Below are positions 6,001 through 59,056 of a stretch of 64,000 nt of DNA, in pieces. The notes beneath the pieces were generated by a model. That model saw only the letters and a list, made by a program, of their open reading frames with translations. It was not told the origin of the DNA and did not search any database. Source of the DNA: Lytechinus pictus (taxonomy: Eukaryota); the NCBI RefSeq assembly GCF_037042905.1, contig NC_087247.1, positions 11,354,148-11,418,147 on the forward strand, read 5' to 3'. The stretch's first letter is position 1; each line of letters begins with the position of its first letter. Position numbers and translations under genes: made by a program.

Positions 6001-6106
6001 CCAAATACATAAAATAAAGTAATTACTACAAAATCCTTTACAAAACTAATGGTCATAATGTATGCAGTATAATGGAGTATGACCATGATATGTTGAAAAA
6101 TATGTG

Positions 6107-10570: not shown

Positions 10571-10805
10571 TTACGAGAAAACATGCATATACACTTGCAA
10601 CATATAAATGGCAGATATTCCTGTACACAATTATGACAAGTTTCAATGAATAAGGAAATGAATGGCTATGGCCGTTTACTTTTTAAAGTTTAATCACCAA
10701 ATACATAAAATAAAGTAATTACTACAAGATCATTTACAAAACTAATGGTCATAATTTATGCAGTATAATGGAGTAGTATGACCATGATATGTTGAAAAAT
10801 ATGTG

Positions 10806-11491
10806 ACAAGTTGAACGCATCTGGCAGTCTCGCCTGCATTACGCGATCCAATTTAGCAGCAGTGCTGACTTTGAAAACAACTATCGAATTATTCACAAAA
10901 ACACCATTCATATGATAATATAATACTATGTTCATTGACCCTAAATGACCTTTTACCTTGGTTATGTGACACGATACTCACTCTGCATGTTCAGTGATAT
11001 ATGATTGCTCTTATGTCAAAGTGTCATGAACTAGATCTATAAACTTTCAAAGTTATGATAGGAATTCAACAAATAACCCTAACATGGCCAAAGTTCATTG
11101 AACCTAATGACCTTTGCCATGTGATCTTATGTTCAGATATATACCATTACCCTTGTGTCCAAGTTTAATGAACTGGATTCATAAAATTTCAAAGTTATGA
11201 CGACATTTCAAAAACTTAACTTCAGTTAAGATTTTGATGTTGATTCCTCGAACATGTTAATTGACCATAATTGTCATTCGACCTTGGTCATGTAACCTGA
11301 AACTCCGGCAGGATGTTCAGTAACACTTGATTAATCTTATATCCAAGTTTCATGAACCAAGTCCGTAAACCTTTTAAGTTATAATGATATTTCAAAAACT
11401 TAACCTTGGTTAAGATTTTAATGTTGACGGCGCGCCGTCGCAAAAGCGGGGCCTATATAGTCTCGATCTGCTATGCAGGCGAGACAAAAAT
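10806..11491 (+). mobile_element. Same TIR/satellite element family, copy E2. Paralogue of E1 in duplication copy B, without the nested MITE.
   Basis: Start ..ttgaacgcatctggcagtctcgcctgcattacgcg. End ..tagtctcgatctgctatgcaggcgagacaaaaatg. Confidence 0.75.
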
Positions 11492-15910: not shown

Positions 15911-16046
15911 GGGGAGTGTTTCATGGATCATCTTGTCAGTGATATTTCACTGACAAACTTGCACCCTGCCAATCACATGCAAGGATTTCAGTAGCTTTTA
16001 ACAGTTGTCAATGAAATTCACAACTTTGTTTCGTGAAACGCTCCCC
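15911..16046. mobile_element. MITE with TIR GGGGAGTGTTTCATG...CGTGAAACGCTCCCC and the internal ..CTGCCAATCACATGCAAGGATTTCAGTAGCTTTTAAC.. core. Related copies lie at about 24655-24800, 26100-26260, 30760-30930 and 31190-31345.
   Basis: The inverted termini and the shared internal CAGCCAATCA...TTCAGTAGCTT motif are visible in all listed copies. Confidence 0.7.
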
Positions 16047-16639
16047 AGGGACATGATGGAGTTCAACGAGATTTCTTGTGTTTCCTGCAACGGAAGAGAA
16101 ATAAAGAGACAGAGACAGAGATATAGAGATATTAATAATGATATCTATATGATTTAAAATAATATTCAATACGCTAAATTATGATCATGTTGTTGTTGGG
16201 TGTTAACACCTTGTATCTCAAAATTTAAAATAATTTAGGACAGCTTAGAAGATGCTTGCTTTTAGAATGATAAACCTAGCTACCTCTTTTGCCAAGAAAA
16301 GAGTTCTCTCTAGAAATTAGGAGACCCTTTTTCACACATTATGAGGCTGCCACCATTACAATATTTCTAAAAGAACATCTCTTCTGAGCTACTCTCAAGC
16401 TATTCAAATCTTAAGATACGAGGTTTTAAAATGCCAGCAATGATGCATTTAATATAAAATAATACAACAATTAAGTACTGCTAATTATTACCTCAGCTTT
16501 AGCACCCTCATAGGGCACTCAAGTATTCAAAGAATTCCATCATACCTGGGTCCCGTAATGAAAAGGTTAGCGATTAATCATATGCTTAAATTTCACGATT
16601 GATTGTACACTGTAGTCAATGCAATTGACCCCCTTCTCT

Positions 16640-23168: not shown

Positions 23169-23803
23169 TTTGTCTCGCCTGCATAGCAGAGCGAGACTAT
23201 AGGCGCCACTTCTCTATGACGGCAGCGGCATCAACATTGAGATCTTTTGTGAAATTTTTGAAATGTCTTCATAACTTAGAAAGTATATGAACCTAGTTCA
23301 TGAAATTTTGGGTCTTCAATTAACAAGGAATTTCCTGCCTGAGTTTCAGGTCACATGGCCAAGATCAAAGGTCATTTAGGCTTAGGGTCAACTTAGACCA
23401 TGTTGGGTAAATAAACATCAAATCTTAACCAAGATTAAGTTTTTGAAATGTCATCATAACTTTGAAAGTTTATCATTCATGGATCGAGATCATGAAACAT
23501 AGACATACACTGTAAGAGCAATCAAGTATCAGTTAACATCCTGCCTGAGTTTCAGGTCACATGACCAAGGTCAAAGCTCATTTAAGGTCAATGAACTTTG
23601 GCCATGGCATGTTGGGGTATTTTTTGAATTGCCATTATAACTTTGAAAGTTTATGGATCCTTTTCATGAAACGTTACGGCCTTAGTATCACTGATCGTTT
23701 AGCACTAGTCTTAGGTCACATGATCAAGGTCAAATTCGGCATTGCTGCTATAATGAATCGAATGATGCAGGCAAGACTACCAGAGGAGTTCCACTTGTTT
23801 ACT
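23169..23803 (-). mobile_element. Same family, copy E5 in inverted orientation.
   Basis: 23169 tttttgtctcgcctgcatagcagagcgagactataggcgcc is the reverse complement of the 3' terminus. 23770-23803 ..gcaggcaagactaccagaggagttccacttgt is the reverse complement of the 5' terminus. Internal units lie between. Confidence 0.7.
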
Positions 23804-25843
23804 CATTCTGATGAAAGTACTACAAACTCTTTGTGTATCATATATTTTGTGATACGCCTGGGCCTCGTCTTTCGAAGAGTTGCGATATATTGAAATCAAG
23901 CTCGAACTGCGATTGACGTGAATGAAAATATGTCATGAAATTTATTCAAATGCATTTTAATTCAAGCAGTTTGAACTTAACATTTAGAGTTCATCCAATA
24001 TCACAATAATATCACTTTTTTTAAAACACCATTGATTATCCTTTACACATTCTTGGAACATACACTCTCCTAGCACAATTGATATGACGTGGAAAATATA
24101 ATATAATCTACATCAACAATCAATTATTCAAAATAATTGGTAAACTCTGCATTTATGGTTCCACAAAGACCACTATACCACTTTGAAAAAAATACAATTG
24201 GTTAACAGCTTGTAAATTAGACAGTTTGATGTGATTAACATGTACATGTAAGTAGGAAATAATGTCATCAGTGGAAGTAAAATGCAGGCAAAACATCCCC
24301 AATGTGATTTAGAGAGAAAACATTTTATCTGATTAATTCATAATGTTAGAAAAATGGCGAAATGGCATTACAATTCGCTCGGAGTCAGATAACGATCACC
24401 CTCCCCCAAAGACCTAAGGATATGCAGTAGGGCCACGGTTGTTGAACAAGTTATTTTTAACATGTGGCATAGGGATGGGGTTTGGGATTGGGTCCAAAAC
24501 ATCATGGAGGGAGCTTTCTACCTCCATGAATACATGTAGTGCAGTGCAGTACAATGTAGCTGGGAGGAAATCAGGAAATATCTTGGGGAAAAGATTATGT
24601 TACCGATTATCGGAGAGGCTGTGTGATTGAAGAGGTTGCTATGGAGACAGCATGCCTTTCAGGAGTGCTTTGTGAAGAGTCTTCTTGAGGGTGATATTTC
24701 ACCAACAAGCTTGCTCTCAGCCAATGAGATTTAAGGATTTCAGTAGCTTATAACATCAGGTTAATTCAGTTAATACCACTGAAAAGGTCCTGCATAAAAC
24801 ACTTCCCTGACCCCCCCCCCCCTTCCCTTTTATAATTCATGAAACAGAACATACGGAAAATGCTTTATCGGGTCTTACCATCCATACAATTAATCTGTAA
24901 ACAATAATCGGTTATTGGCCAATCATGTCTCTCCCAACATAACAATGTCACTGAAATGGACCAGCTATATCCCATCAACCATCCCAACTATCCAGACAAA
25001 ATAATACTCAATAGTACTGCTACAAGTGCAATGCTATCTAGTACAGTGACTACAGTCACACTTGTGAAATCAACACCAAACTGACAAAATACCCATCAAG
25101 CAACAGACCACTGGTTGGGTTGGAGTGTGACTGTACAGTGCGTCCCAGAAAAAAATGAAACTGAGATTAAGCCATGATTTATCATAACTTAATCACAAAT
25201 GCAATAGACAAATGACCTACCAATGTAAAGCTTAGAATCTCCTCTTTCACCTGATATTACATGTACTTAGATTATTCCTCATTCACGCAAGAGTGAGCAA
25301 AAACAATTTGAAGAAAGGATACCAAAAACTCCTTTGGCGGGGGGTATCTGAATTTTAAAAAGAAAATCACATGCCTAAAAAGTTCAATATCTGCTCTTTT
25401 ATTTGATACCTTAATCACAAAAATGGTCAAAAAGTAAAAAAAAAAGTTGTGTTCGCTCGAAACAATGCTTGTATTTCCATAATTTCATTAAATAAGCGTG
25501 TTTTCACCTGTTTCCCACAGAAGCTATTGCATGGTTAACAAGAGACTTAATAATGCATGGCTGATTGTCAACAAAACAGAGTGTCGAGTGAGTTTGAACG
25601 CTAGCCTGTAAAACCTCTTCATTTTATGAAATTATTGAAATTCAAGCCTTATTTCAAATAACCAGAACTTTGTTATTTCTTGACCATTTTCTGGAATTGA
25701 GGTATCAAATTAAAGAGCAGACCTATATTGAACTTTTTGAAAATGTGGTTTTCTTTTTGAAACCCAGATACAGCCCGCCGGATGACTTTTGGTATCCCCT
25801 TTTCAAATTGTTTTTGCTTTATGCATGGAAGCCTTAAGAAGCA

Positions 25844-32559: not shown

Positions 32560-34030
32560 AACAAAATAAATGGAAAAAAAAAGTTCTGCACACGATCATT
32601 ATGACCAGGCCTAGCTCAATGCAACAAAGAGAAAACACAACATGGGAGAAAAATTCAACAACACTATAAAGAGAAAAGTTCTGCATGCAATATTAAAGGT
32701 TGTTTACACTGATGATAGCCAAACATGAAATGGAAGATAATTCAATGTCATTATATGGAGCAAAGTTCTGCATGCAATCATAGTACAATAAAAAACATAA
32801 AGTGAGAGCTCAACTGTAAATAGAAACCTCCTACATGCAATATTGATAGTGGATTGGTGGAACACCCAGAAAACATAAAATGGAAAATACTCGATGTTAT
32901 TAATACTGTATATGGAGCAAAGTTCTGCATGCAATCATAATAACCAGGTTTTGGTCAAGTACAACATAAAGAGAAAACATAGAATAAGAGCTTAAGTGTA
33001 TTTAGATCAAAACCTTCTACATGCAATATCAATAGTGGATGACTGAAAATAGCCAGAAAACACAAGAAAATTCATATTAGAAGCAAAGTTCTACATGCAA
33101 TCACAATAACCAGGTTTTGGTCAAATAAAACATAGAATAAGAGCTTAACCCTAAAAGAGCCGGGTTATTTGGACACATCTCACAGCCGGGGAAGGGTGGA
33201 TTCTGCCCCCCCCCCCCCCCCGAGATCTCGGCGTTCGATCGCGCCAGTGCCGCGAAAATTTGCAGTGGTAGTGTGTGATATAATCTACAAGGCTGTATGG
33301 TTAATTTTTTGGAAATAATAAGATTTTTAATTTCATGAATTAATTATGCTAATTTATTCATTAACATTTGCTCTAATCAACTATTATACTGCCTAAAAAC
33401 TGCTAATTTGTTATTCACAGACTCTTTGGAGGATCCTGATCAAATGTACTTCAAAAAAAATTTGGTATCACAATTTTTTTCTTATGTATTTTATTGTGTT
33501 TAAATTTCTTTGTTTTTCAACTTTTTTGTTTTTATTGTTTTTTCGATGGAAATTGTTGCAGACTTAATTTTGAATAACAAACAAGACAAAAATTATCCAA
33601 TTTAATCAGTAAAAGTAGAAATAATGATACGTTTATGAATTTTGGCTAAATACACAATTTGCATTGGATTTGTACATGAATTCACGTTTTTGAGCAGTTT
33701 TGGGTCTGACATGCACTTACATAATGTTAAGTAATTTTGTAATCGTGTACCCGGGCATCACAAATTTGGTCTCAAAAGTTGCGCGAGATTTGAAAGTAAA
33801 AAGTCAGCGGCAGGGTTGAAAAATTTCACGCGGCGGATTTATCGTAAAAATGTAGATGGGGGGGGGAAGGAATCTGCCCCAGGCCTTTTAGGGTTAAGTG
33901 TAGATCAAAACCTTCTACATGCAATATCAATAGTTGATTACTGACAATAGCCAGAAAACACAACATAATTCAATGTTATTATTTGGAGCAAAGTTCTGCA
34001 TGCAATCATTAAAACCAGGCATGGCTTCTT
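32560..34030 (+). repeat. Tandem array of ~150-bp units (..agcaaagttctgcatgcaatcat...ccttctacatgcaatatcaatagtgga..), split by the piggyBac-like insertion.
   Basis: At least six reiterations of ..aagttctgcatgcaat.. / ..ctacatgcaatat.. are visible on both sides of 33149-33893. Confidence 0.8.
33149..33893. mobile_element. piggyBac-like non-autonomous element (~745 bp). Termini are CCCTAAAAG..../....CCTTTTAGGG. It is flanked by a duplicated TTAA and inserted into a 150-bp tandem repeat.
   Basis: ..gagcTTAA[CCCTAAAAGAGCCGGG...GGGGCAGATTC... ...GAATCTGCCCCAGGCCTTTTAGGG]TTAAgtgtagatc.. The uninterrupted repeat units read ..gagcttaagtgtatttagatc.. with a single TTAA. Confidence 0.7.
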
Positions 34031-35597
34031 TGAAACAAAGAAAGAGATACATGTAGCAATAAATGGGAGAATATTGGTGAGTTTTAGAATGAGTGAACGA
34101 GAACGACGTATCAGTCCACTGATCTGGTGTGTCAACGTAGTCGTCTGTCTATTTTCACTACAGATATGCATATTTAAGATTTTGCTCGACGTGTACGTAC
34201 GTCCACATGAAACTGTGTGATAGCGAGCGGGTCATGACATGCTGACCAACCCGGAAGATCTGGCGTACCATCACGTCACGACCCGGTCGGCTGATGCGAA
34301 GGTGCAACTTATGCACACTTGCTTTGATTCCTTTTTACCGGAGTTAGGAGATATAGCGATACAAATTTTGGAGTTCAGAAAATAATTTCAAATATGATAA
34401 ACATAATGCATCGTGCAACTTACATTAATTTTGTGTAAATTCACTGAAAACTGTGTTTTATAGGGCAATGATCCATTACAATTGATCTTCATGCTGAGCT
34501 TGAGCGGTTGAAATGACGTCACTCACGTGCACGTCGACCATAATTTAGGAGAACAGCAGAATGCAGGTGGCGAGGCCAAAAAATTACTCAACTATAGGGA
34601 AATAAGTTCCGCAATGGTGTTCATTATAACTAGACGTGGCTCAATGAAACAGACAGAACACATGCAATGGGAGATAATCTTGATTTCTGCATTAAAAAAC
34701 AACAAAAACAAATGAGAAGGGAGAAACTTACTTGTTTGCCACAGTATGTACAGCTGATATTGTCGAAGACCCTGCCTTGTGTTCTAGCCCAACAGCACAC
34801 TGCACAAGAAAGATAAAACACAAGTGCATTAAAGGGACTGGTTAATATCAATTTGACTAATTATAAAAAAAACCTGTGCTGCAAGGGACTTAAGGCATTT
34901 CTTTTTTCCAGTCCAGAGTTTTAGGATTGCAAATTTCATTTTATACTTGATGTGTGTTCTTTTTGTTGTTGTTTGCGCTTTGGGCCATTTTGGGAAAAGC
35001 ACAGTACATAAATAATATTAAGGTACCAATTGTCACCTCCTCTATGATATGTTATAAAATTAATGTCCTGATAAAATAGCCTCAAAAATAATTATTTAGT
35101 GCTATGTAATTAAAAAAACTAGAGTGACCACAAACACCATCCCAATTTTATTCCATGTATGTGTTACAATTTGTATCCCCAGGGGGACAACTTAGATGAC
35201 GATATTCCAGTCACAGATCTCTTAAAAGTGCATGAATTTGATTTTTTTTTCCTTCCCAGGTATTTTAATTATCAGTATAAAAAATGTTAAATATAATGCA
35301 CATTAAAGTTTGGGATTTTAGACCTTTGTACTATTATTAATGCTACCTTAAGTATTTGGATTTACGTAAAGAAAATTAGAGACAAAACAACACCCCCCCC
35401 CCCCCTCCTCCCCAAAAAACCCAGTCATCCATAATGCTCATCTTATATAAAGGGACTGAGCCATATACATAGTGGTTTTCTTTATTACTGATTAATTTTT
35501 GTTAGCCAGTGATTATGTTAATTTTGGTGCAAACAAGTTTCACAGGAAAATGAAAGTATAAAGTTAATAGTAACATTATATGAGATTAATTGGAGAG

Positions 35598-35878
35598 TAC
35601 TACTGGGTCCTGTCTTTCAAAGAGTTGCGATTGATCCGATCGACCACAACTATGAAAAGCCAACAACGTCCACATGTAAAATGTATGATTGTTCGAAATT
35701 TTTTCTAGATATCCTGTATATCCATGCATACTTTGTTTTCTTGAAAATTTTTGTATGCTTCTCTACAGAGGACATTGTGAAAATTTCCTGTAGAGAAAAA
35801 TGTGACAATGATGATGTTCCACATGGTTTTAGTCGATCGGATCAATCTTGACTCGATCTTTGTAAGACGGGGCCTACA
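35598..35878. mobile_element. MITE GGGTCCTGTCTTTCAAAGAGTTGCGATTGATCCGATCGACCACAACTATG...GTCGATCGGATCAATCTTGACTCGATCTTTGTAAGACGGGGCC. Related partial copies lie at 2690-2760 and 30525-30600.
   Basis: Inverted termini are visible. The same 60-bp terminus occurs at three loci. Confidence 0.7.
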
Positions 35879-36366
35879 AATGTTGGTGTATGAACCAAAC
35901 GACAGATCATCAAGAGGAAGTCTTTACTCTAGACTACTGTAGATCACCAAAGTCTTGTTTCCGTAGTTCATACTACTGGTCATGCACTGCACCGGGGAAA
36001 TACCATGCTATGACTGAGTCATACTTCTGTGTACAATATGTGTGGGTTCCCATGCATACAGCAACTTGTATGGGTTTTTTTTTCAGTTAACTGCTATACA
36101 GTGACTTTAGTCTGCTTGCAAACCCTTCGCTCAAGTTAAGGGGTCTGAATAAGCAGCCTACAGTGACTCGTGTACTGAAGGCCAAATTGAAACAGCAAGC
36201 TTTATATGTGATAGTCTTGTGTGACTACCCTCTTGTTGATCAAAGTTCAATCAGGGTCTGTGCCTGAAGACTAGTGACACAGGGGTTCAACAAAATGTTG
36301 AAACATGCATTCCATCAGGAACTTTATAGAAAGCACATCCTCACAAAAGCAATATATCATTCTACG

Positions 36367-36723
36367 GGGTTCCCAGCTTTTCAAGAAAACAAAATTCCCT
36401 GATGAAGTTTAACTATTCCCTGATAATTACCCATTCCCAGTTTCGCATGTTTTCTAGTGTATTTTCAGTATAATAACAATAATGTAAAACTAATTAGTAC
36501 CACCATAACCTGTCATTCAATGGACGTTGCTCTGATATGCAACAAAATATAACAGAGTCTGTGCTTTCGACTTTTGGGCTGATAAAAATTCCCTGATTTT
36601 TCCCTCATTTGAGGCATTTTCCCCTGATATGAGGTATTTTTGATCAAATTCCCTGAATTTTCCCTGACTGGAAAAAAAGTAAAATAATTTTCCCCGATTT
36701 CCCTGATGGGCTGGGAACCCTGT
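36367..36723. mobile_element. MITE with TIR GGGTTCCCAGC...GCTGGGAACCCTG and internal TTCCCTGAT reiterations. A related copy lies at 53100-53235.
   Basis: ggggttcccagcttttcaagaaaacaaaattccctgat ... ttccctgatgggctgggaaccctg. The second locus shares cccctgattattcctgatgggctgggaaccctg. Confidence 0.65.
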
Positions 36724-36859
36724 TCTAAGACCAATCAAGTCATTTTATATATTGGAACAGATGCGTAGTCAATATACTACATTATATCCTACATAGATTG
36801 AATCCTGTATAGTGATTGGTTCAAATAGCATCATGTGACCGAATATATTTCAACTATGA

Positions 36860-37056
36860 TGTTGCGTGACGTCAGACCTCGATATATTTTTTGCTATACC
36901 AATATTCTGACGTCACTATTTCAGAAAACTGGATATTAAGCTAAACTCTCGGGCGCACCGGCCAGCAAGCTCTCTCTCCCGGGCAAGTCCCGTGATGCGT
37001 TGGCGCAGGCACTCATCTGCGTTCCGCTGAGCACGGTGGCTCGGAGAAAAGTACGT
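36860..37056 (+). promoter_or_regulatory. CpG-rich promoter-like segment with two perfect CRE palindromes (TGACGTCA at 36867-36874 and 36908-36915). It ends in a strong splice donor AAAAG|GTACGT at about 37051. Possibly an unannotated TSS or non-coding first exon.
   Basis: Local CpG density (..ctcgggcgcaccggccagcaag..cccgtgatgcgttggcgcaggc..gcgttccgctgagcacggtggctcgg) contrasts sharply with the AT-rich surroundings. The CRE octamers are exact. Confidence 0.3.
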
Positions 37057-37127
37057 AATTCAAGGCAAGTAACCGGACTTTGCAAGCTCAGCGCATAGAT
37101 TTTGGTTATAAATTATTAAATGTAGGA

Positions 37128-37310
37128 TATAAAACAAATATATCAGGCGTTTCATTCGAAAGCATAGTGGGAATTATTAATACTCGGTTGGACTGGCAAA
37201 ACTACTTTATTTCCCTCGGGGCTTCGCCCCTCGGGAAAAATAGTAATTGCCAGACCAACCTCGGATAAATAATTCCACTATACTTTCTCAAAGCCTGATA
37301 TATTTGTTTA
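37128..37310. repeat. Imperfect ~180-bp fold-back, MITE-like hairpin, immediately downstream of the CRE/CpG segment.
   Basis: gatatatcaggcgtttcattcgaaagcatagtgggaattatt...ggttggactggcaa..ccctcggggcttcgcccctcggg..ttgccagaccaacc...aataattccactatactttctcaaagcctgatatat. The outer and inner arms are reverse-complementary. Confidence 0.6.
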
Positions 37311-37536
37311 CTGTACTTAATGGACAGGGTTACATTTGTGGCCAAATTACAACTTTTGATAATTCAAATCTTTAATCAACATAAATATTATATTCCAACC
37401 ATAGCAAACAATTATGACAAGAGCACGTTCGTTACTGGACCTTTTCATTATTAATTTATTACACAAAAGCTTCATAGACCATCATATATGGTTCAAACCA
37501 GATTCAAGATCAACTTTGTGAATTCCTTCTTGCTGA

Positions 37537-37612
37537 AGGAAAACACGCCATGGCTACAATTCGAACCCACAACGCTCAAAGGTGTGAGTCAGAACCACTA
37601 GACCACGACGCA
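37537..37612 (-). pseudogene. tRNA-like sequence, tRNA-Glu-like by its D-arm, probably a pseudogene or SINE head.
   Basis: Minus strand reads ..GGGTGCGTCGTGGTCTAGTGGTTCTGACTCACACCTTTGAGCGTTGTGGGTTCGAATTGTAGCC. The D-loop TGGTCTAGTGGTT and T-loop GGGTTCGAAT are present. The anticodon arm is degenerate, with a 4-bp stem and a 6-nt loop. Confidence 0.35.
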
Positions 37613-38039
37613 CCCACAGGGAACACAGAAGATAAAACAGCAATTTTCTTGTCCCCAAAATCGGAATATTCCCATTTCATGATAGTACTTGACAGGTAGG
37701 TAAATGGTAGCTAGACCAAATGGTTGGTAGATGAAGTGGTTGAAGACCAAACAGGATTATACCATGCGGGATTAGACCATACAGGAAGTAGGCAAAGCGG
37801 GTGTAGACCAATCGGCAATTCACCCCTGGATATCCAAATCCTACAAGGGTGCCTTTGCAGTTTGCACAAGGTCAGGCCTTTGACCACTAACACACACGGT
37901 ACAGGTGTCCGTCTATCACACATGAAGGATATGTGGAACACCAATGCTTTGCCAACAGTTTCTTATCTTGATGAAGTGTGCAGACACACGTGCCCCTATA
38001 CACCTGTTCATTTATTGACTGGCAAAGCATACTGCCTCA

Positions 38040-39890
38040 AACTAGTGCTGTAGCCGAACCGCCGAACCGAACGGTAGTTCGCCGAACATGGCACTTCCGA
38101 ACCGAACAGAACCGAACCGAACACTAAGACTTGGTTCGGAAGTTCGGCAAAAAAAAAAAAAAAACGGCTTTCAGCTAACAAATTTATAAGTTTACACCCT
38201 TTCTAATCATTATATTTGCGCATTCTCTATTTAATCTTCTTTGCAATTGTATGTTGGAAGTATGCGCTTATTTTGCGGTTACTAGATTTTGTTTTCATTT
38301 TCATGTTGACATTGTGGTTTTTACGGCCCTGATTAAGAAAGGAGATCAGATGAATGATGTTGCGCGAGCTTGCGCTATAATCATTTTACTGGCTTTCATC
38401 ATCTCTCGCTCTGTGGCCGAATCGCCGAAGCATGGTAAAGAAAACCAAAACTGTATGAGTGTTCATTGGTTAAATCTAATTATCTAAAATATTGTTGTTT
38501 TTAGGTGGCGAACAAGATTCTTGTTTGAAAATCTTCAAAGTATTTTGAATGAACGAGCTCAATAAACCGAAAGTGAAAGATGAAGTACCATTAATATTAC
38601 GAATTACGATACGATGTGATTAAGATCGTAACTCGTGTATTGTTGCGGCGGAGAATAAAGATCTGATTGAGATGATTGACATTATTATTGAGGTGTCGGC
38701 TCGCTACAGTACTGTCTAGTTTTCATGATTTTAGAGAGAAGTAAAGAGTTTTGAAAACGAGAGATCCAGTGAAAGTGGGAAATAAAGTGAGTGACTGTTA
38801 GAGATGAAAAGGAGAGACGCAAAACAAATAATATAGAAATGAGATGAGGTGAAGTTATCTTTTTTATTATTAACAATCAGATGAAAATAAAAATCAAACA
38901 CTCATGAATGATTACGGTATAGCATATAGCAAGATCCACTTCCCCTAGTTGACAAGTTGAATGAAGATAAAGCCATGCGGAAACATTCATCTCTTGGGGG
39001 AAAATGACCCCCAATCTTTACTTTTTTCCCCTTTCTTATCAACTTCTCAAATTAACCATAAACAATTCGATGATCACTCTACTCCCCCTGTCCCATTACA
39101 GTCGTAAAACTTTGCATCCCACTTGGTCTGTATGTTCATGGTCGAATGAAATCTGACCAATGAAATCATAGAAATCTCGGGAATTGCTCTTCAATCAAGT
39201 GAGCTGAGTTTCGCGAGCAGACAAAGCACGTGGCTGTATGTACCGATGCGACAAGCGATTGGTGGTTTAGTTCACCCATCGAGCCAATTAGCGAAAGGCG
39301 CATTACATAAGCACGCTTTCTTCGACACGCCCCTGGCCCTACTATGCCTAGTTCAGTGCACTGCACTGGCGCTGGCCGCCTCGTATGTGATGCAATTGCC
39401 AATCACGTTTGGCCGGACTGTATATATAAATATTCATGAGCTCAGAGTCCCGCTACAAGGGGACTGCATGCGCTGGCCTAGCTGGTACGGGTACGAGTCG
39501 AGTGCGATCGCGAGCGTAGTTAATTTGGCAAGTATCCAAAGTGTGGTCCAGGTATGGACGACTAGGAAGAGTCGCCATTTTAGAACTGTGAGTTACCCAA
39601 TAAATCTGTCATCAGATAATCAAATTCGAGATAACAGTTGGTTCGTTGAGCGCTATAACTTTCATAGTTTCATGTCAACAAGATAGAGATAAAATGGTTT
39701 GATGTGACAGAGGTACGCGCGAGCACATGCAGTCAATCAAGTACAAATTGTCTACCGGTACGCGCTACGTATACCTGAATGAACTATAGCTTTATCAGTC
39801 TATCATTACCGAACCCCGAACCGAACCAATGTTCGGCAAATTTCTGCCGAACCTTGCCGAACCGAACCGAACCCGAACATGGCGCCTGAC
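38040..39890. mobile_element. ~1.85 kb TIR element. Its termini are rich in CCGAAC/GTTCGG subterminal repeats, with a possible AACTAGT target duplication. The interior contains CCAAT and TATATATAAAT motifs and ORF 39246..39686 with no recognisable domain.
   Basis: Left end ..caaactagtGCTGTAGCCGAACCGCCGAACCGAACGGTAGTTCGCCGAACATGGCAC... Right end ..GTTCGGCAAATTTCTGCCGAACCTTGCCGAACCGAACCGAACCCGAACATGGCGCCTGACTTGCAGCaactagtatg. Reiterated hexamers are typical of hAT/CACTA-type subterminal regions. Confidence 0.55.
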
Positions 39891-42231
39891 TTGCAGCAAC
39901 TAGTATGATGAACTAAGTGACTTGATAATGACCTCATTTAATATGTTAAGAGCATGGTGCATATGCTCCTCACCAGAAAATTACACGAAAACATGCAAGT
40001 CAGGTACAAGTGTACGGAAAATTCAAATTTGGCAATGAGCTGCAAATTTGGCAATTGGAAGCATTTTTTTTTTCAATTTCACAAAATAACAGGAAAGCAG
40101 TTTAACCTGTGCCAAACTACAGAAATGAGATAAAATGAGGTGGTGTAATATCCAATTTCGCAGCTCTTAACAGTAAACATGATAATTTGCACTCATGCAA
40201 ACATTCTGGAAAGTAGGAGCAATGCGAACAAACCCATAAATCTCGGGAGAACAAACATGACACATTAGAAACCATGGCAAAGACATGAAGCGACACAACT
40301 GTTTCAAAGCTCTGTTAACCTTCCTGCTATTTCCCCCTCCCGGGTTGTATTGACTGTAACAAGCAAGGACACATCCTGTGGTTTGATGGAGAAGGGATGG
40401 GAGGGGGGGGGGTAGTGGTATGGAGAAGGGCAATAACATGTGATAAACACTTGTGTCATGTGACCTATGAATGAACTTCTAATGCAAGAGCCAATGTGCT
40501 CTTCCTGTGCGTGACCGAGTTTTGTTTGCAATGTGGTACACACATACATGAATCAGGGAGCTGTTTACTCACAGCATGTTATTAGTTCAGGCTAGGTCAA
40601 AGCACCTCTATCATCCCCCCCCCCCCCATTCTCCGAGGTCTTGAACTTTTAACATAAGCTACTGGACTACTCCCCTGCCCCCAGTACGGGTACTCCCACA
40701 CAACATCAAAAGTACATAGCGCTTGTAAGAAGATGATAGCTTGCCAAAAGCATAATAGGTAGACTTGGATTTGAAATAATTTAATTTCCTGTTGCTTTCA
40801 TTGGGTGGTATGTTGTTTTGTAGCAGTGACCCAGAGGAGAGTATAATGCTTAAAGAAGGTTGTTTTTGCAAAGAGAATGACAATGTTTCAGTGAGGTGGG
40901 GGGGGGGGAGTTTTCAAAAAAAAAAATCTATATCCGACTTTAAAGATAAATGCCAGTTCGTACAGAGTCCAATAAAATGACCACCTAAGCGTCCGAAAGC
41001 GCCCAAAGGATTCTGCAAGATATTGTGTAATTGCAGAGAAATAAGTGAGAAAAATAAAGCACAATATTCCAGCCATCTGGCGGGTATTTTCCCCAAGCAT
41101 TATCAATACACTGTCCCACATGTGCTTATCTTTGCTGGCAATCTACAGCATGATCATTTTTCAGCTTAGATTTCAGCATTTTACAAAATTCAGTCAATGT
41201 AAATGTAACAGACCTAGATCCACGATGACAAAGTGACAATTAATCTTGGTCTCACTGAATATCTTGTGAAATCGGTGTTTACTGCAACAACTTTCAATAA
41301 TCCTTAACTACATGTAGTCCTACTGTATATACAAATTGACACATGCACAGAACTGAACTTAATGCAATCAGGTATAGCCTACCAAGCCTAGCACCTGAGA
41401 AAGAATGAATAATTACTAGATAGGCCCTCAAAACAATTTTTTCCCTTAAAAAATAATATTCCCAAACTCTCCTGTGATTCACTCTCCCTGATGATGATCA
41501 TCTGTCAGATCAACAAGATTTTATGACAAGAAAGTTGACCTTCTAAAAAGGAGAAACTCCCTCACGTGTCTGGGGCAGGCATGACACATTGGACATCACA
41601 TGACTCAAGAAGAAGACGTATCACGTGAGATCTGAAGCATGTGACCTCGCCAAGGAAATAAGCCCTTCTTCATTGGGAATGTGTATTTCAACCATTGGAT
41701 TTGAGTTGTGCCTTGATCTAAGTATATATCCTAATTATATTATGGCTTCCCTCCTTTCTAAATCATGCCCAAAAAAGAAATTTTGAAACTGGATAAACAA
41801 AAGGTTGAAGTAGGGAAAGTGTGGGGGATGCAAAACTGGCAATCAATCCATAGTCTTTTTTCTTGCAACAGAAAGTACGTTTCTATAATTCAAAGAATTA
41901 TCAATTGCAAATTTGCAATTGATATTTGCAACTGACTGGGAACTTATTGCCAACAAAACCCATGAATATACTGCTTAAAGTTTGCTTTATAGAGTTGGAT
42001 CATGGCCTTAGTTAAAACAGAATACTGGCCACAGACGTAATTGTTCTATTATACACAAGTTGACAAGAATGTCATGCTTTTCTGGGAGAGTTTTATAATG
42101 ACAACTGTTACAAGCTACTGAAATTCTATCTTATCTGACTGGACGAGAATAAATATTTAGTCAATGAAAGTCACTGAATATTTTCTTTAAATATCATTTC
42201 CCTGGTACTCATTTTGGTTTTCGCCCTTCAA

Positions 42232-42915
42232 CCTACATTTGGTCCTGTGGTCAGCGGATCTTCAATCAATTTTAGTCTTTGTTCCACCCCCTCCCCGATA
42301 CCTCCCAAATCCTCATTACAATTGATCTTACCCTTGTTTCTACATCCGTCCATTCACCGCTGTACTGCTCAGGGGGGCGTTTCATGAAAGGACTTGTCGG
42401 ACGTTTTATCTGACAAGTCCCATTTTATCCAACAGTTACCATAGGAACAGTGCCTCTCAGCCAATCAAAATCATGGAAAGATGTCAGATCTGACAACTTG
42501 TCGGATGAAAATATTGATGAAACGCTCCCCTGGGTCATCTTCAACCCTCCGTTTGGTCCTCATGATGGCTGTGGTCAGTGGATCTTCGGTTAATCATGGC
42601 CCTTGTGCCACCCCCTCCCAAACCCATCCCCAATCCCCATTACAATTTATTTTACCCTTGTTTCTACATCCGTCCATTCACCGCTGTACTGCTCAGGGTC
42701 GTCTTCAACCCTAAGTTTGGTCCTCATGGCGGATGTGGTCAGCGGATCTTCAATCAATCTTGCTCTTTGTGCCACCCCCTCCCCGATACCTCCCCAATCC
42801 ACATTACAATTTATCTTACCCTTGTTTCTACATCCGTCCATTCACCGCTGTACTGCTCGGGGTCGTCTTCAACCCTCCGTTTGGTCCTCGTGGTCGTCAG
42901 TGGATCTTCGGACTT
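42232..42915 (-). repeat. Tandem array of about four ~161-bp units. Each unit is a copy of the 3' ~100 bp of the KIF23 terminal coding exon, including the TAA stop, plus ~60 bp of 3' flank. One unit is interrupted by a MITE.
   Basis: Direct repeats of ..tctacatccgtccattcaccgctgtactgctc(a/g)ggg tcgtcttcaaccct..ggtcctc(a/g)tgg..gtcag(c/t)ggatcttc.. at about 42232-42357, 42536-42697, 42698-42858 and 42859-42915. Minus-strand ORF 42647..42841 repeats ..RVEDDPEQYSGEWTDVETRVK*. Confidence 0.85.
42358..42535. mobile_element. MITE inserted inside one unit of the KIF23 3' tandem array. TIR GGGG(G)CGTTTCATGAAAG ... CATCAATGAAACGCTCCCC.
   Basis: Terminal inverted repeats are visible. The insertion interrupts the otherwise collinear repeat unit between ..gctcaggg and gggtcatcttcaaccc... 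It is related to the copy at about 13600-13700. Confidence 0.7.
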
Positions 42916-42978
42916 CAACTTCTCAACATCAGTGAACTGCACTGCCCGTCCACCGCCTCTGGTTGGTATCACTTCAGC
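42811..42978 (-). CDS. KIF23: KIF23 terminal coding exon: AEVIPTRGGGRAVQFTDVEKLKSEDPLTTTRTKRRVEDDPEQYSGEWTDVETR(VR*). TAA stop at 42811-42813 if unspliced. A GTAAGA donor sits immediately after ..ETR, so a further short 3' coding exon cannot be excluded.
   Basis: Acceptor catcctcag|GCTGAAG. Matches human [22 protein letters not shown]...SEWTDVETR. The in-frame stop lies 2 codons after ETR. Confidence 0.7.
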   Translation of the reverse strand, partial: AEVIPTRGGGRAVQFTDVEKLKSEDPLTTTRTKRRVEDDPEQYSGEWTDVETRVR

Positions 42979-44240: not shown

Positions 44241-44520
44241 CTGTGTCCAGGGTCTCAATGGGTTGGTGATCGATCCAGATGCTGTTGGAGGCTGACCGCG
44301 ATCGACGATGTCGCAGCCTGACCGGTGGTGGGTTGGTCTTCCTCTGCGGAGGCGGTGACTTGGATCGATTGAAGCTCTCGGCCAGCACCTCCTTGGCTGC
44401 TTTCTTGGCGCTCTCCTCCTCCTCGTGGCCCTGGACGATCTCCTTCAGCTGGCGAAGCTTCTCCTCCCGGACCCACATCTCCGTCTGCATCTTCATCTCC
44501 GTCTGGCGGACCCTCTTCGC
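44241..44520 (-). CDS. KIF23: KIF23 exon: [93 protein letters not shown](+1 nt).
   Basis: Acceptor catgattgtag|GCGAAG; donor GACACAG|gtaggtgg. Matches human [22 protein letters not shown], the basic RRSRS motif region of MKLP1. Confidence 0.85.
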
Positions 44521-44794
44521 CTACAATCATGTGTAGATGAAGGAAAGTGGTTTAAGAGCCTCTATAAAACTTTGGTAAAAGTTCAATAATGTGAGATATA
44601 TTCCAGTATCATCTTACGTATAGTGTTGTGGCTGAGTGGATGAGTCTCTGGACTTAGAACCACATGGTCCGGGGTCGATTCTGAGTGGATAAGTCTCTGG
44701 ACTTAGAACCATATGGTCCAGGGTCGATTCTGAGTGGATAAGTCTCTGGTCCACCAAGGCACTAACATACTTAATCTGCATTTGCCACAATCCA

Positions 44795-46699: not shown

Positions 46700-48150
46700 T
46701 TTTTTTTTTTTTGCAGGATTTTCTGCATTTATTGGAATATATACAAAACAAATTTACAATGCTTGAGACATAATCATAATATAGCATAAAGTACATAACC
46801 AAGTGACAATCTTATATGTAGTGACTGGAGAAAGACATAAATACAATATATAAAAAATATATATAATAAGTAAAATGCAGAGGCAAACTATATAAGCAAA
46901 TATATGCTTGAAGCATAGCAGCCAAAAAAGGGAAGGGCTACATGGAGACCTAAGAAATTAATTGTGTCTGTAAGAAAAAAAAAATTAATGTCACGAATCA
47001 TCAAATAACGGGGAAAAAAGTAGAAATTGACAAATGAAGTGTGTGCTAGTGAGTGCTAGTGGGTGCAAGTGCAGGTGAGAGATTTATGAATATCTGGATA
47101 AAATATATTTTTTCAATGAAGCTTTAAAAGAAAAGACAGATGCAGTGAGTTTAATATGATTTGGTATGTTGTTCCATATATCTGGGCCGTGGTGTCTAAT
47201 TGTTTTCTGTGCTAAAATTATTTTCGGGTTTGTCAAATGAAAGTCTGATGAGTGACGTGTAGGATATGAATGAATGTCGCTATTGTAGGTAAACATGTTT
47301 TGAAAGGATGTAGGTATAGCATTGGTTGAGAATTTGTACATAAAAATGGCAGATTGTAAAGTATGGATATCGTTCATTTTCAACGTTTTGAGTTTCCGAA
47401 AAATGGGATCAGAGTGAGCTAAATATTGCGAATGGGTGCAAATACGGAGTGCCTTTTTTTGAAGGCGCAGAATTGAATCTATTTTTGTTTTATTGCTATT
47501 ACCCCACAATATATTGCAATATGAAATATGTGATAAATATGTGACAACATAAATAGTGATCTTTGGGAAAGACAATATTTGAGTTTATATAATATACCAA
47601 TACCTCTGGCAACTAGTGTGCTAACATTATGAATGTGGCTGTTCCAAGTTAAATTAGAATCGATTATTACCCCTAAAAATTTTGTATCTTGTTTTTCAAT
47701 GAGACTGATGTTATTAATTTGAATGGAACCACGAAATGTATGTTTAGAATTAAGGTGTTTAAAGTATATGAAATTTGTTTTGTTAATGTTTAACAAAACA
47801 ATTTGATACATACGCAAGTGATCTTTGTCTTTTTTCTAAGTTTCTCCTAGAATATAAATATAGGGAGATTCATGCTGCAGTAAATACATGTTGGCGTTTT
47901 CATGATAATGGGTGTGATGCTTTTCTTCTCGTTTAGCATTCCCGGATGAATAAAGGTTAAAGGTCACAAGATCAATCGCAGGATATCCCTGATATGTGAT
48001 ATCATAACATTGATAACTAGATTGATTCATGACTGCGGACAGTTTATGCCCCTGCCATTGCCAGCCTGAGAATGTATTACACACTTTTAATAACTGTTCA
48101 AATACTCCAATTGGAGTATTCAAGCATTGAGCAGCTACGTCACTCATGCA
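46700..48150 (-). mobile_element. 5'-truncated non-LTR retrotransposon (CR1/L2-like LINE): RT C-terminal fragment plus 3' tail, in the KIF23 intron between the 48.6 kb and 46.6 kb exons.
   Basis: Minus-strand ORFs 47479..47817 and 47084..47575 carry LINE RT C-terminal signatures. These include LGVIIDSNLTWNSHI, ..YCNILWGNSNKTKIDSILRLQKKALRICT..AHSDPIFRKLKTLKM, and a CR1-like ..FKASLKKYILSRYS* end. An A-rich tail follows at about 46700-46716 on the minus strand. Confidence 0.7.
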
Positions 48151-54467: not shown

Positions 54468-57212
54468 AATGAAATAGGAAAAAAATATGGTTAAAATTTT
54501 TTTTTTTCAGAGTGGACATCATAATGCAAATGGGCATGAGAACAATGAAAGAGAAAGTAAACATTAATGTACAATTGAAAGGTACATAGGTATGGCATTC
54601 ATCTTCTCTACATTTATGACAAATTTTAAGACACACACACACACACCCAAATAAGGAAAGTACCATTCTGTATTGTTTTTGTCTTTAGGTAACATCCACA
54701 ACCAGCCTTGTTTAACCAATTCCGATTCTTATTCTTGACTTACATATAGACCAAATTTACAAGACCCTTTCTTACATATAGACCAAATTTACAAGACCCT
54801 TTCCTTGCATTAAAAATTGAATACTGCATGCTAAGCAACATACATGTACTATTCAATACAAGTTTAACAGTACTAAATTACTTTTAGTCAAACTTTGAAT
54901 TGCATATCCATTGTAGATGCCCAACTCTACCCGAACTTATATTGACTACTGAAGTTCTATTACAATCATTTTTTTAACAAGAGATATGCAATATATTGCA
55001 AAGAGACAATGAATTGGATTATTTGAGTACAAGGTCTGCTTTGCGTAGCAGTATTTTTTTTAATGTTTTCAATATCATTTCCTCAAAGTTATTTGAAAAG
55101 CTAATAGCCATTAACTAAAATCTTCATAATCTAAAGCCCCCATCACACTTATTCCGAATCAAGCAGAATTGGCCAGAATGAAAGGACTATTGTTCGACCA
55201 CCAGTTGGTCATTTAAATCTACTTCCAACACCGTTCGAAAATACCCCTCGAATGTTTTGAACATGACCAAAACCTTCGGGACGGCCAAAAGAAATGACAA
55301 AATATTTCGAATGCACTCAGAATATTTAGAATGTGCCTAGAATGTCCAAGAATATAGCACGAATTATCAATCTGACTCCATTGCAGTTCATTTTTACTAG
55401 TGTATGATGATTCACCTGGTCAATTTACTGAATTTCAACTCCAGTTTGGTGAATTCATAAGTTCCTCCCAAAAATTTCTAGATTTTTGAATACTTTTTTT
55501 GTTCCAGCTTCTGCTTGATTCCTGCTGATTCCGACTAAGTGTGAGGGGGGCTTAAGGTAAATAAAAGCTGAAAAGGAATATCACCTAAACACAATTATAA
55601 ACAGGCCTTGAAATTCCTTACAACAAAGAGGAGCATGTTTTGGGTTTTTTTTCATATAGCCTTCTACATGTACATTCATACTAAAATAGCTGCAAAAGTG
55701 CCTTTTACATGCAAAATGACTAATGCCTCAGATGATCTTTGTAGGTTTGCATGGTGGAGTTAATGACGTGGAGACGGTTTACGGTCGGTCCACCATGTGT
55801 AATATGAAGAAGGGAAAGGAAATACAGGCAGAAAATTGAAATGGAAAGACAAGAAAGGGTGAAAAGAGGAAATTAGAAGTATTCTTTTTCGACTAATGAC
55901 TAATTGTTAATATGCATATAAAACTTAACAGTGAATTAGCTTTGAAATATAAACAAATAGTAACTGTATGCACTTCAGTCACAGGGAAAATGAGAGGACA
56001 GCATCAAGTGGAAGGGAAAATAAATTAATATAATAATTAATCATAAATTGAATAAAATAATGTGTAGGCTTCTACCAACCCTGAACAATATATTTTGACA
56101 GGCTTTAGAATGTCCATGAGAGTGGATGAGAGCTTGTCAAAAATATTATTAAGGTTGGTAGAAACTTACATACTTTGCTTTGATACAGAACTTAATACAT
56201 CAGATCAGAATCTCTAAAGCGATTTACATATAAATAGAATAGTGAGTAGAATTTGGTAATACAAATTTGTTTAAAACAAAACATGATTGAAAGAAGAGTG
56301 ATACTAAAACCACTTTAATAACACCATTTTCAATCACTGCACTTAGTTGTGAAGTGGCCCTAATTAAAAAGAACTAAACAGAAAAGCAAAGCAGGAAACA
56401 TAAAACCAGCTATAAAATAAATATGAAATAAAGAAACCAAACAGAAAACTCAATAACATACATTTCATCTCTGTTCCAACGATTCCTGGTGTAAGCAACA
56501 AGGTATTGAAGAAAAAAGAGAAATGTATAAAATCATAAAGTACATAAACATAATGAATAAGCGTTAGGGACGTGTAACTTCATAGCTTCATTTCATTGGG
56601 TGAACTGTATGGTAAAGTGATGTGAACCTCCAAGTTGGCATGATAACATGAAATGAGTTACAAATGATTAACAAACAGTGGAACATGACTTTTATACAAT
56701 GATTGTGACATGTATGTCAACACACAGTTATGACAATGTCATTTGACCCCATGATCTAATGGTGATTAAAATCACTGAGCACCAAATGTGCCGAAAAAAT
56801 TTAACCTTTGGTGTATGAGGTTTAATAGTGTCAGTCATACTTGCCAGCATTTAGAGATATGCAAAATCTGGACAGCCAAGCCCAAAGGCCGAGGGTCCAG
56901 AGGGCCGACTGAGACCCTGGGAATGAGGCAGGGGTCAAGATGGAAGTTCCCCCTGAATATCCTGTATTTTAGCAACTTTAACCTTAAAAGGACTGGGCTA
57001 TTAAAGATGTATTAAGGAGTGAATGGCTCTATTTATCAGCACATCCTGATTTTTTTTTTGCCATTTTGAAAGTTGAAAATCAGGACCATCCTGATAAAAT
57101 CAGGACAGTTGGCAGGTCTGGGGTATTCATCGATATAATTACTGAACTTGAGATCAGAGTATGAATCAAACCCAAGATTAGAATACAGGCATTTATGTTT
57201 CAAGATACTCAC

Positions 57213-57377: not shown

Positions 57378-57875
57378 CTGGGGATTGAAAAAAGAATCAA
57401 TGGTTCACAACTGATAAAGACCTGCAAACATCAAACATCCTTCTACATTATTATTTAGTTGGAGAAGGGCAATTATTACCCTTCTGCAACTAAATACTGA
57501 GTGGCAAGATGGCAGGAAGAAGGTCCCATAATACCTCTGTTGTAATCAATGCTTGGGCAGATTTGCCAACATTTGAAATGCAGAAAACTGAACCAAATAT
57601 TGCGAGAGAGCAAAGCGACCAAGGGGGTGTCCCCCTCCCACGGTAGGGAGCTTTTGCATTTTTGGACTTACAATTGTGCAAACTGGTATCTTGAGAGAAA
57701 ATTCAGCCTCAAGAATAACTCTACTTGGGTGTGTTATGATTTGCCCAACCAGAATACAGAAATGGATAATTGAATATATTAAAAAACAATATTAATAATT
57801 GACACACTAAAAGATGCACCCAAATCCATACTCACAAAATCTGAATGTTAAGTTTTTTAGGGAAATTAAATCTTC

Positions 57876-59056
57876 AACAAGTGGAACGCCTCTGGCAGTC
57901 TCGCCTGCATTACGCGATTTAATATAGCAGCAGTGCTAACTTTGAAAACTACTATTAAATAATCATTCACAAAAACACCATTCATATAATGACATAATAC
58001 CACGTTCATTGACCATAAATGACATTTGAACGGTGACTTAAGACTTGTCAACTACACCCATGTCCACACTTCATTCACTCTATCCATAAACTTTCAAAGT
58101 TATGATGGCAATTCAACAATTACCCTTACATGGCCTAAGTTTATTGACCTTAACTGACCTTTGAACTTGGTTTTGTGACCTGAAACTCACAGGGGATGTT
58201 CAGTGATACTTGATTACTCTTATATCCCAAGTTGTATGAACTAGATCCATAAACTTTCAGAGTTAGGATGGTAATTCAACAAATACCCCTAACACGGCCA
58301 AAGTTCATTGACGTTTAATGACCTTTGACCATGGTCATGTGACCTGAAACTTGTACAGGATGCTCAGTGATACTTGATTACTCTTATGTCCAAGTTTTAT
58401 GAACTAGATCCATAAACTTTCAGAGTTAGGATGGTAATTTAACAAATATCCCCAACACGGCCAAAGTTCATTGACCTTAAATGACCATTGACCATGGTCA
58501 TGTGACCTGAAACTCGCACAGGATATTCAGTGGTACTTGATTAATCTTATGTCCAAGTTTCATGAAAAAGATCCATAAATTTTCAAAGTTATGATAGTAA
58601 TTCAACAAATACCCCCAACTTGACCAAAGTTCATTGACCCAAAATGACCTTTGACCTTGGTCACGTGACCTGAATCTCAAGCAGGATGTTCAGTAATACT
58701 TGATTAACCTTAAGCTCAAGTTTCATGAACTAGGTCCATATACTTTCTAAGTTATGATGTCATTTCAAAAACTTAACCTTCGATTAAAATTTTGAAAATA
58801 ATTCTCCCAACATGGTCTAAGTTCATTGACCCTAAATGACCTTTGACCTTGGTCATGTGACCTGAAACTCAGGCAGGATATTCAGTAATACTTGATTAAG
58901 CTTATGTCCAAGTTTCATGAACTAGGTCCATATACTTTCTAAGTTATGATGTAATTTCAAAAACTTAACCTTAGGTTAAGATTTGATGTTGACGCCGCCG
59001 CCGGCGTCGGAAAAGCGGCGCCTATAGTCTCGCTCTGCTATGCAGGCGAGACAAAA
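57876..59056 (+). mobile_element. Same family, copy E6: full length with about six internal units, located in a KIF23 intron.
   Basis: Start ..acaagtggaacgcctctggcagtctcgcctgcattacgcg. End ..cgcctatagtctcgctctgctatgcaggcgagacaaaaactgg. ORF-track peptides 57866..58051 and 5985..6278 are homologous. Confidence 0.75.

Follow-up and report, generated by a model that had tools for sequence, protein, structure and literature searches.

Intronic copies of an exon end and its 5′ splice site in the KIF23 gene of the sea urchin Lytechinus pictus

Results

The KIF23 locus

The minus strand of the window (the whole 64,000-nucleotide stretch of DNA that was analysed) carries the KIF23 (MKLP1, kinesin-6) gene of Lytechinus pictus. 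An earlier reading made from the letters alone, here called the sequence-only reading, had already named the gene, and that identification was borne out by protein comparisons. Joined translations of the minus-strand exons matched the kinesin motor domain (Pfam PF00225, E = 1.8e-81) and the C-terminal Arf6-interacting domain MKLP1_Arf_bdg (PF16540, E = 7.5e-37), and they matched PDB 3VHX chain B (human MKLP1, Arf6-MKLP1) at 1.7e-29. In an exhaustive protein search, XP_054752223 (870 aa) showed 100% identity across all 219 query residues; the cluster that holds it is made up of RefSeq entries for L. pictus and L. variegatus titled "kinesin-like protein KIF23". A tblastn search also located in the window the residues of XP_063952438/9, the newer L. 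pictus models. The gene model is already in RefSeq, where the KIF23 isoforms differ solely by an 8-residue micro-exon, NRWNRDEM. The repeat array described below is, as far as these tools show, undescribed so far.

The features at the 3′ end of the gene are as follows (a slash marks an exon-intron boundary):

42978..42820, minus strand: KIF23 coding exon, third from last, 159 nt, phase 0/0
42822..42814, minus strand: predicted working 5′ splice site AGG/GTAAGA, from orthologue and annotated protein continuity
42819..34800, minus strand: intron of 8,020 nt holding U2-U4 and the 3′ 68 nt of U1 (units defined below), from the flanking exon boundaries
34799..34732, minus strand: next coding exon, 68 nt, CAVGLEHKAGSSTISAVHTVAN plus AA; acceptor tttatctttcttgtgcag, donor AA/GTAAGT
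16084..16063, minus strand: true last coding exon, coding part; acceptor ttccgttgcag

The exon at 42978-42820 encodes AEVIPTRGGGRAVQFTDVEKLKSEDPLTTTRTKRRVEDDPEQYSGEWTDVETR, which covers the final part of the Arf6-binding domain and, after a linker, the WTDVETR motif. Its acceptor is cctcag/GCT, preceded by ...ttcacatcctcag, and its donor is AGG/GTAAGA. When a RefSeq KIF23 protein (P0166) was aligned to the window by tblastn, residues 794-847 fell on 42981-42820 and residues 847-870 on 34802-34731. The second of these segments is the exon beginning CAVGLE. It is the sole minus-strand match in the window to the pattern C.[VIL][GAS][VIML]E, and it stands in phase 0 after the acceptor at 34799. 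It was also the top match of a profile of orthologue tails run against the six-frame translation; that match is weak alone (E = 0.44), and its rank, strand, phase and acceptor mutually agree.

The expected tail after WTDVETR, C-x-[VI]-[AG]-[VIM]-E with a basic end, is therefore present as CAVGLEHKAGSSTISAVHTVANKKHKKSR at 34799-34732 and 16084-16066, identical to the RefSeq Lytechinus KIF23 proteins. The last exon reads G AAA CAC AAG AAA TCT CGT TGA, that is, (K)KHKKSR and a stop, in agreement with the C-termini of the RefSeq KIF23 proteins (P0164, P0165 and P0166). XP_063952438/9 of L. pictus and XP_041460992 of L. variegatus both read ...SGEWTDVETR/CAVGLEHKAGSSTISAVHTVAN K/KHKKSR, and the Lytechinus RefSeq proteins end in ...WTDVETRCAVGLEHKAGSSTISAVHTVANKKHKKSR. 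We rejected a 45-nt mini-intron after 34732 (AA/gtaagt...aatgcag), given that the annotated KHKKSR and stop sit at 16084. In older RefSeq models the 3′ end of the gene was uncertain and lay at another exon (VANK and a stop).

An apparent stop codon that is predicted to lie in an intron

The sequence-only reading had taken the exon at 42978-42820 for the last coding exon, ending in ...ETRVR and a stop at 42813-42811, with the repeats beyond it serving as a 3′ UTR VNTR or as alternative terminal exons. There is indeed an in-frame TAA 9 nt after ETR, and the older RefSeq models were unsure of the 3′ end, though they placed it at a different exon. However, all annotated Lytechinus KIF23 proteins pass ETR, as does every orthologue that we retrieved (mammal, fish and annelid sequences and invertebrate transcripts), each continuing with C[SAK][VI][AG][VIM]E and a basic end. 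The continuation exons are in phase and have strong splice sites, the ETR/GT junction is kept in three urchin sequences (L. pictus, L. variegatus and a TARA contig), and no usable acceptor lies ahead of the copies. We consider a terminal exon at this position extremely unlikely.

Because orthologues and annotated proteins continue past ETR, AGG/GTAAGA at 42820/42819 is predicted to be the working donor, joined to the CAVGLE exon 8 kb downstream, and the codons GTA AGA TAA, misread as VR and a stop, would be intron sequence. This assignment draws on RefSeq (Gnomon) models together with deep protein conservation. With the donor at 42820/42819, U2-U4 would be intronic and outside any 3′ UTR. Of the two locations offered earlier for the downstream copies, it is the intron (8,020 nt) that stands and the 3′ UTR that falls away. 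Nor is the repeated piece the end of MKLP1, as had been supposed. The protein runs 29 residues beyond WTDVETR and ends 26.7 kb beyond the apparent stop codon, the remainder being encoded by the two further exons at 34799 and 16084.

Anatomy of the array

On the minus strand, 42909-42222 is a head-to-tail array of three full units and a 42-nt stub with a period of 164:

42909-42752, minus strand: U1, 158 nt, with 90 nt (30 codons) from the exon end and 68 nt from the intron start
42751-42588, minus strand: U2, 164 nt, intronic; pseudo-donor AGG/GTAAAA at 42658-42650
42587-42264, minus strand: U3, 324 nt (164 plus a 160-nt insertion), intronic; pseudo-donor AGG/GTAAGA at 42334-42326
42263-~42222, minus strand: U4 stub, ~42 nt, GAAGATCCGCTGACCAC..AGGACCAAATGTAGGTTGAAG; orthologous to the L. 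variegatus stub at L002:33611
42530..42372, minus strand: MITE-like element, 159 nt, with a 14-nt TIR GGGGRGCGTTTCAT, inserted in U3

Tandem Repeats Finder (TRF) reported a period of 164 with 2.2 copies, 87% matches and a score of 563 (42532-42893), and a repeat search recovered a third in-register copy after a 324-nt step, displaced by the insertion. The anchor GAAGATCC recurs at 42909, 42751, 42587 and 42263. The donor anchor AGG/GTAA recurs at 42820, 42656 and 42332, giving donor-to-donor spacings of 164 and 324 nt. When unit 2 was compared with the 64-kb window by blastn, matches were confined to the array (E = 1e-46, 1e-30 and 1e-13). The sequence-only reading was thus right that a direct-repeat array lies here, and its figures need adjusting: it counted about four repeats of ~161 bp, each copying the last ~33 codons, where we find three units with a 42-nt stub, a period of 164 and an exon-derived part of 30-32 codons.

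In every unit, ~30 codons taken from the exon are followed by a consensus 5′ splice site, and a G-run lies 25-45 nt into the intron. The copies begin 69 nt into the exon, so that the donor is included and the acceptor is absent; this is not a whole-exon duplication. As had been noted, only the most upstream copy is continuous with an acceptor and with the remainder of the exon, and GTAAGATAA lies directly 3′ of that working exon. The downstream copies had also been credited with intact ORFs and donors, which is true in part. U2 has an intact exon-like ORF (EDPLTTSAMRTKLRVEDDPEQYSGEWTDVETR) with two extra codons and is the sole intact downstream copy. The exon-like copy in U3 is broken by the MITE and also carries one additional nucleotide, and the U4 stub has neither an intact ORF nor a donor; donors are present in U2 and U3. 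The period of 164 nt is not a multiple of 3.

Searches outside the locus returned nothing further. An exact-pattern scan of metagenome contigs with a 31-nt core gave no match, a protein-guided scan of the same contig collection gave no relatives, and ORFs across the unit junctions, sought in public assemblies by exact look-up and homology search, had none on record. Within the window, a 16-nt match of the U3 intron start to 34483-34468 had no extended similarity and was treated as chance.

The array in L. variegatus and in an outgroup urchin

We compared the locus with its L. variegatus counterpart (L002, from GCA_018143015.1), using one assembly per species. The orthologous exon lies at L002:32961-33119 and has the same ETR donor junction. 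It is followed by an array of four units, V1-V4, at L002:33030-33610 and a stub from 33611, with a TRF period of 140 and no MITE. The array therefore occurs in both species, and the duplication predates the L. pictus/L. variegatus split. Copy number differs, with three units and a stub in L. pictus and four units and a stub in L. variegatus, a comparison that is between species only. To that extent the earlier description of a variable array (VNTR) is apt, though not its placement in a 3′ UTR.

The L. variegatus copies have not been kept as coding sequence. V2 and V3 have a common 13-nt frameshifting deletion, V3 also has an in-frame TAG and a weakened GTAACA donor, and V4 has lost WTD; V2-V4 thus all carry frameshifts or a stop, which argues against coding constraint on the copies. 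This decay, along with the pyrimidine-poor spacers described below, makes the suggested use of the copies as cryptic alternative terminal exons unlikely.

A 715-bp TARA metagenome contig (L001) served as the outgroup. Its urchin exon is 85% identical at the protein level, and its junction, AGA/GTAAGT, is in the same place as the L. pictus donor. After the outgroup donor the contig covers 290 nt of intron, and no second copy lies there.

Tandem repeats mis-assemble readily, and with one assembly per species it is conceivable that a single junction has been falsely expanded. We give this very little credence. The units differ from one another by 5-26% and by indels, one of them contains a MITE, and the array in the independent L. 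variegatus assembly GCA_018143015.1 shows changes particular to its own units.

A MITE in U3

The 159-nt element in U3 is short, non-coding, bounded by TIRs and present in dispersed copies, as is characteristic of MITEs; its boundaries are uncertain by ±1-2 nt. It folds into a hairpin of -28.9 kcal/mol (z = -4.7). A second copy at 13805-13958 is 86% identical, 15911-16046 holds a related element that shares its TIR, and relatives occur in the L. variegatus locus at L002:72225-72347 and L002:69424-69582. These features uphold the claim of the sequence-only reading that one unit is split by a MITE.

The orthologous site in V4 of L. variegatus is empty and reads GACCC/TGATCAG (here the slash marks the insertion point). 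Relative to the empty site GACCC/TGA, the net gain in L. pictus is 160 nt; comparison of the two copies and the empty site revealed no unambiguous target-site duplication. The MITE landed in U3 after the L. pictus/L. variegatus split, and the array is older, as had been proposed.

Could the copies be spliced?

We evaluated the spacers of the array as potential acceptors. Those before U2 and U3 are poor in pyrimidine (31-34%) and rich in G (35-39%). Within the array, no AG follows a tract of more than 65% pyrimidine, and the true acceptors of KIF23 have 75-85%. Splicing from the phase-0 donor to a unit-boundary AG would give ATC CGC TGA. U2 and U3 were excluded as cassette exons on these grounds, the poor acceptors and the frame. 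More generally, the copies cannot act as mutually exclusive or cassette exons, since they lack an acceptor, represent a partial exon and recur with a period that is not a multiple of 3.

One more elaborate arrangement was considered, in which the MITE would have made the U3 core a cryptic 36-nt in-frame cassette exon, inserting a second QYSGEWTDVETR between ETR and CAVGLE. The acceptor would be a C-run at the MITE end with GAG/ at 42368 and the donor that of U3 at 42332, so that the exon with its flanks would read TTTCATGAAACGCCCCCCTGAG/CAG TAC ... ACA AGG/GTAAGA. It would run from phase 0 to phase 0, and the tract before its AG, at 65% pyrimidine, is the joint highest among the candidate AGs of the array. 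However, the polypyrimidine tract is short, the exon is in no RefSeq isoform, and L. variegatus has no MITE there and no such site. We regard this exon as very unlikely.

An older form of the exon

Alignment of all copies showed that 6 nt are missing from both working exons (U1 in L. pictus, V1 in L. variegatus) and are present in five of five downstream copies and in the outgroup exon. Because the downstream copies and the outgroup keep these 6 nt, the deletion must have occurred in the working exon after duplication. The copies therefore preserve the ancestral exon, which was longer by two codons.

Probable sequence exchange within the array

A 43-nt core around the donor, GAGCAGTACAGCGGTGAATGGACGGATGTAGAAACAAGGGTAA, shows no difference among U1, U2 and U3. 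Elsewhere, variation affects 33 of 165 columns of the alignment, and by permutation an invariant core of this kind has p = 4.2e-4. L. pictus units share 93-95% identity with one another in the part that comes from the exon and 74-90% in the part from the intron. The same core varies and is eroded in L. variegatus, which makes conversion a more economical explanation than selection. The identity of the core and the mosaic make-up of the units are, we infer, most readily accounted for by gene conversion or unequal exchange that took place recently within the L. pictus array. The identity could instead reflect selection on the copies in L. pictus, but we judged purifying selection on the core less likely given its erosion in the sister species.

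Some details suggest that the exchange may have reached the working exon. At two synonymous sites, the L. pictus exon, U3 and V4 agree in having AGC and GAA; AGT and GAG stand at these positions in the exon of L. variegatus and in the outgroup. The intron part of L. pictus U1 matches V4 at 55/63 positions, compared with 42/53 and an 11-nt gap for its positional counterpart V1. The unit-junction types are also ordered differently in the two species. This pattern, drawn from small counts that include two synonymous sites and a single 11-nt indel, suggests that the end of the L. pictus working exon may have been overwritten from a downstream copy.

It is also conceivable that the intronic 5′ splice-site modules are functional, whether as decoy or backup donors, U1-binding sites, G-run enhancers or elements for AS-NMD of KIF23. 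The donor and its 34 upstream nt are 100% identical in three L. pictus units, two of the three donors are equal in strength, a G-run lies 3′ of the donor in all units and in the outgroup intron, and the array has been kept since before the L. pictus/L. variegatus split. On the other side, substitutions and a 13-nt deletion have eroded the core in L. variegatus, where one donor reads GTAACA, neither the number nor the order of the units is conserved, a MITE is tolerated within U3, and homogeneity in a single species is what gene conversion predicts. We therefore think such a function unlikely. A combined account is also improbable, in which the copies would have rewritten the L. pictus exon end and donor by conversion and would feed regulated, low-level alternative or unproductive splicing, possibly including the 36-nt QYSGEWTDVETR mini-exon.

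Discussion

We think it very probable that a 164-bp exon-end/donor segment was tandemly duplicated, that its intronic copies are non-coding, minisatellite-like relics, and that sequence has been exchanged within the array. The segment, consisting of the exon 3′ end and the first ~70 nt of the intron, would have been duplicated in the ancestor of both Lytechinus species. Only the first unit would have stayed continuous with the exon, with U2-U4 removed along with the intron. The extra copies would then have behaved as a minisatellite, coming to differ in number and structure between species, and the MITE would have been inserted later in U3 of L. pictus. We regard the feature as ordinary, a partial-exon duplication that is specific to this lineage, is decaying and bears signs of concerted evolution. 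It fits best among intronic minisatellites, with an exon/5′ splice-site junction as its seed.

The present-day effect of the array on KIF23 is most likely none, and we see no evident consequence for KIF23 function. At most, a pseudo-donor might occasionally be used. In that event GTAAGATAA would be retained in frame and would bring in a premature stop codon over 50 nt ahead of the last junctions, and the transcript would probably be an NMD substrate. A stop placed that early, with two exon junctions well downstream of it, is expected to trigger NMD.

What looked like a stop codon followed by a repeated C-terminus is thus most probably a splice donor with an intronic minisatellite behind it, and our result is mostly a correction. 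It also offers a small evolutionary case, in which the origin and later decay of a partial exon/5′ splice-site duplication can be followed. Intronic copies of this kind can fossilise an earlier state of an exon and may swap sequence with the working copy.

Several known systems resemble the array in part. The nearest category is tandem exon duplication, for which many unannotated intronic exon copies are on record in animal genomes (Ivanov & Pervouchine 2022, PMC9013439; PMC8373072; see also Letunic et al. 2002, as cited in PMC9013439). There, as here, exon sequence and adjacent intron are copied locally and exon-like copies are left in the neighbouring intron. The KIF23 array differs in that the copying took in no more than the 3′ 90-96 nt of an exon of 159 nt, with a donor and without an acceptor, and in that the copies are decaying in the sister species.

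The array also resembles intronic minisatellites or VNTRs. It consists of head-to-tail units of 140-164 bp (TRF periods 164 in L. pictus and 140 in L. variegatus), within the tens to hundreds of base pairs usual for minisatellites, and a G-rich stretch, GGGGAGG..GGGGAGGGGGTGG, occurs in every unit. The sister species differ in how many units they have and in how these are built, and the units show signs of having been homogenised through unequal exchange or conversion. The difference is that the KIF23 unit derives from a functional exon-intron junction, and its first unit still is that junction.

Classical tandem-donor constructs and pseudo-5′ splice sites likewise place identical or near-identical donors, with identical upstream context, in tandem downstream of one acceptor, as in the KIF23 array. 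Unlike those constructs, this array is natural and has spacings of 164-324 nt, and only its first donor, which sets the end of the 159-nt exon, is used according to the annotation.

As for the KIF23/MKLP1 C-terminus itself (PDB 3VHX, PF16540), the exon supplies the last part of the Arf6-interacting domain together with the conserved WTDVETR, and, as in vertebrates, a short basic tail comes after it. The linker between the domain and WTDVETR is lineage-specific, and it is there that the Lytechinus exon lost its two codons after duplication.

KIF23 isoforms and annotated 3' end

The two L. pictus RefSeq isoforms of KIF23, X1 and X2, differ solely in a micro-exon. At the 3' end, the older RefSeq models (XP_054752223/4) read through a donor that also contains an in-frame stop codon, giving the C-terminus ...VANK*; the newer models join this donor to the exon encoding KHKKSR*, 18.6 kb downstream.

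~56461-56484, minus: NRWNRDEM micro-exon, 24 nt
34730-34732, minus: donor AA|GTAAGT, also in-frame TAA

Elements near the ETR donor and the stop codon

A G-run lies 25-45 nt 3' of the ETR donor (the 5' splice site at the repeated exon/intron junction) and is common to L. pictus, L. variegatus and the outgroup urchin. Every repeat unit carries its own copy, and we regard the run as a candidate intronic splicing enhancer.

42770-42800 in the window, 33140-33165 in the L. variegatus locus (L002), 410-425 in the outgroup contig (L001): G-run GGGGAGG[G/T]G…

Two relatives of the MITE inserted in repeat unit U3 were found in the window. The shorter has the termini of the U3 MITE, GGGGAGCGTTTCA...TGAAACACTCCCC, but differs from it internally; it begins 17 nt past the KIF23 stop codon and therefore lies within the 3' UTR.

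15911-16046, minus: 136-nt MITE-like element with termini matching the U3 MITE
13805-13958, plus: second full-length copy of the U3 MITE, 86% identical to it

U3 also shares an exact 16-nt match with the flank of the CAVGLE exon, the next coding exon. Since no similarity was found between the two sites beyond these 16 nt, the match is probably due to chance.

42314-42329, minus: AAGATCAATTGTAATG, at the start of the intron part of U3
34468-34483, minus: AAGATCAATTGTAATG, ~250 nt 3' of the CAVGLE exon

Other repeats in the window

A 49-bp tandem repeat (44632-44749; 2.4 copies, 95% identity) is intronic, upstream of the KIF23 exon at 44520. At 47087-47835 (minus), within a KIF23 intron, there are open frames, including …FLGVIIDSNLTWNSHI…, with a resemblance to the C-terminal portion of a LINE reverse transcriptase. 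Members of a dispersed family have an open frame in common, VSCHITKVKGHLGSMNI…VFKVSTAAKLDRV.QARLP, and the arms of an inverted duplication, separated by about 700 bp, have near-identical translated frames (KKTFINHYYSHNSLPNHIEHDIESLAYLGF…).

5988-6278 (minus), 10759-10977 (minus), 23549-23890 (plus), 57869-58051 (minus): dispersed repeat family
9167-9472 (plus) and 10153-10485 (minus): inverted duplication, about 300 bp
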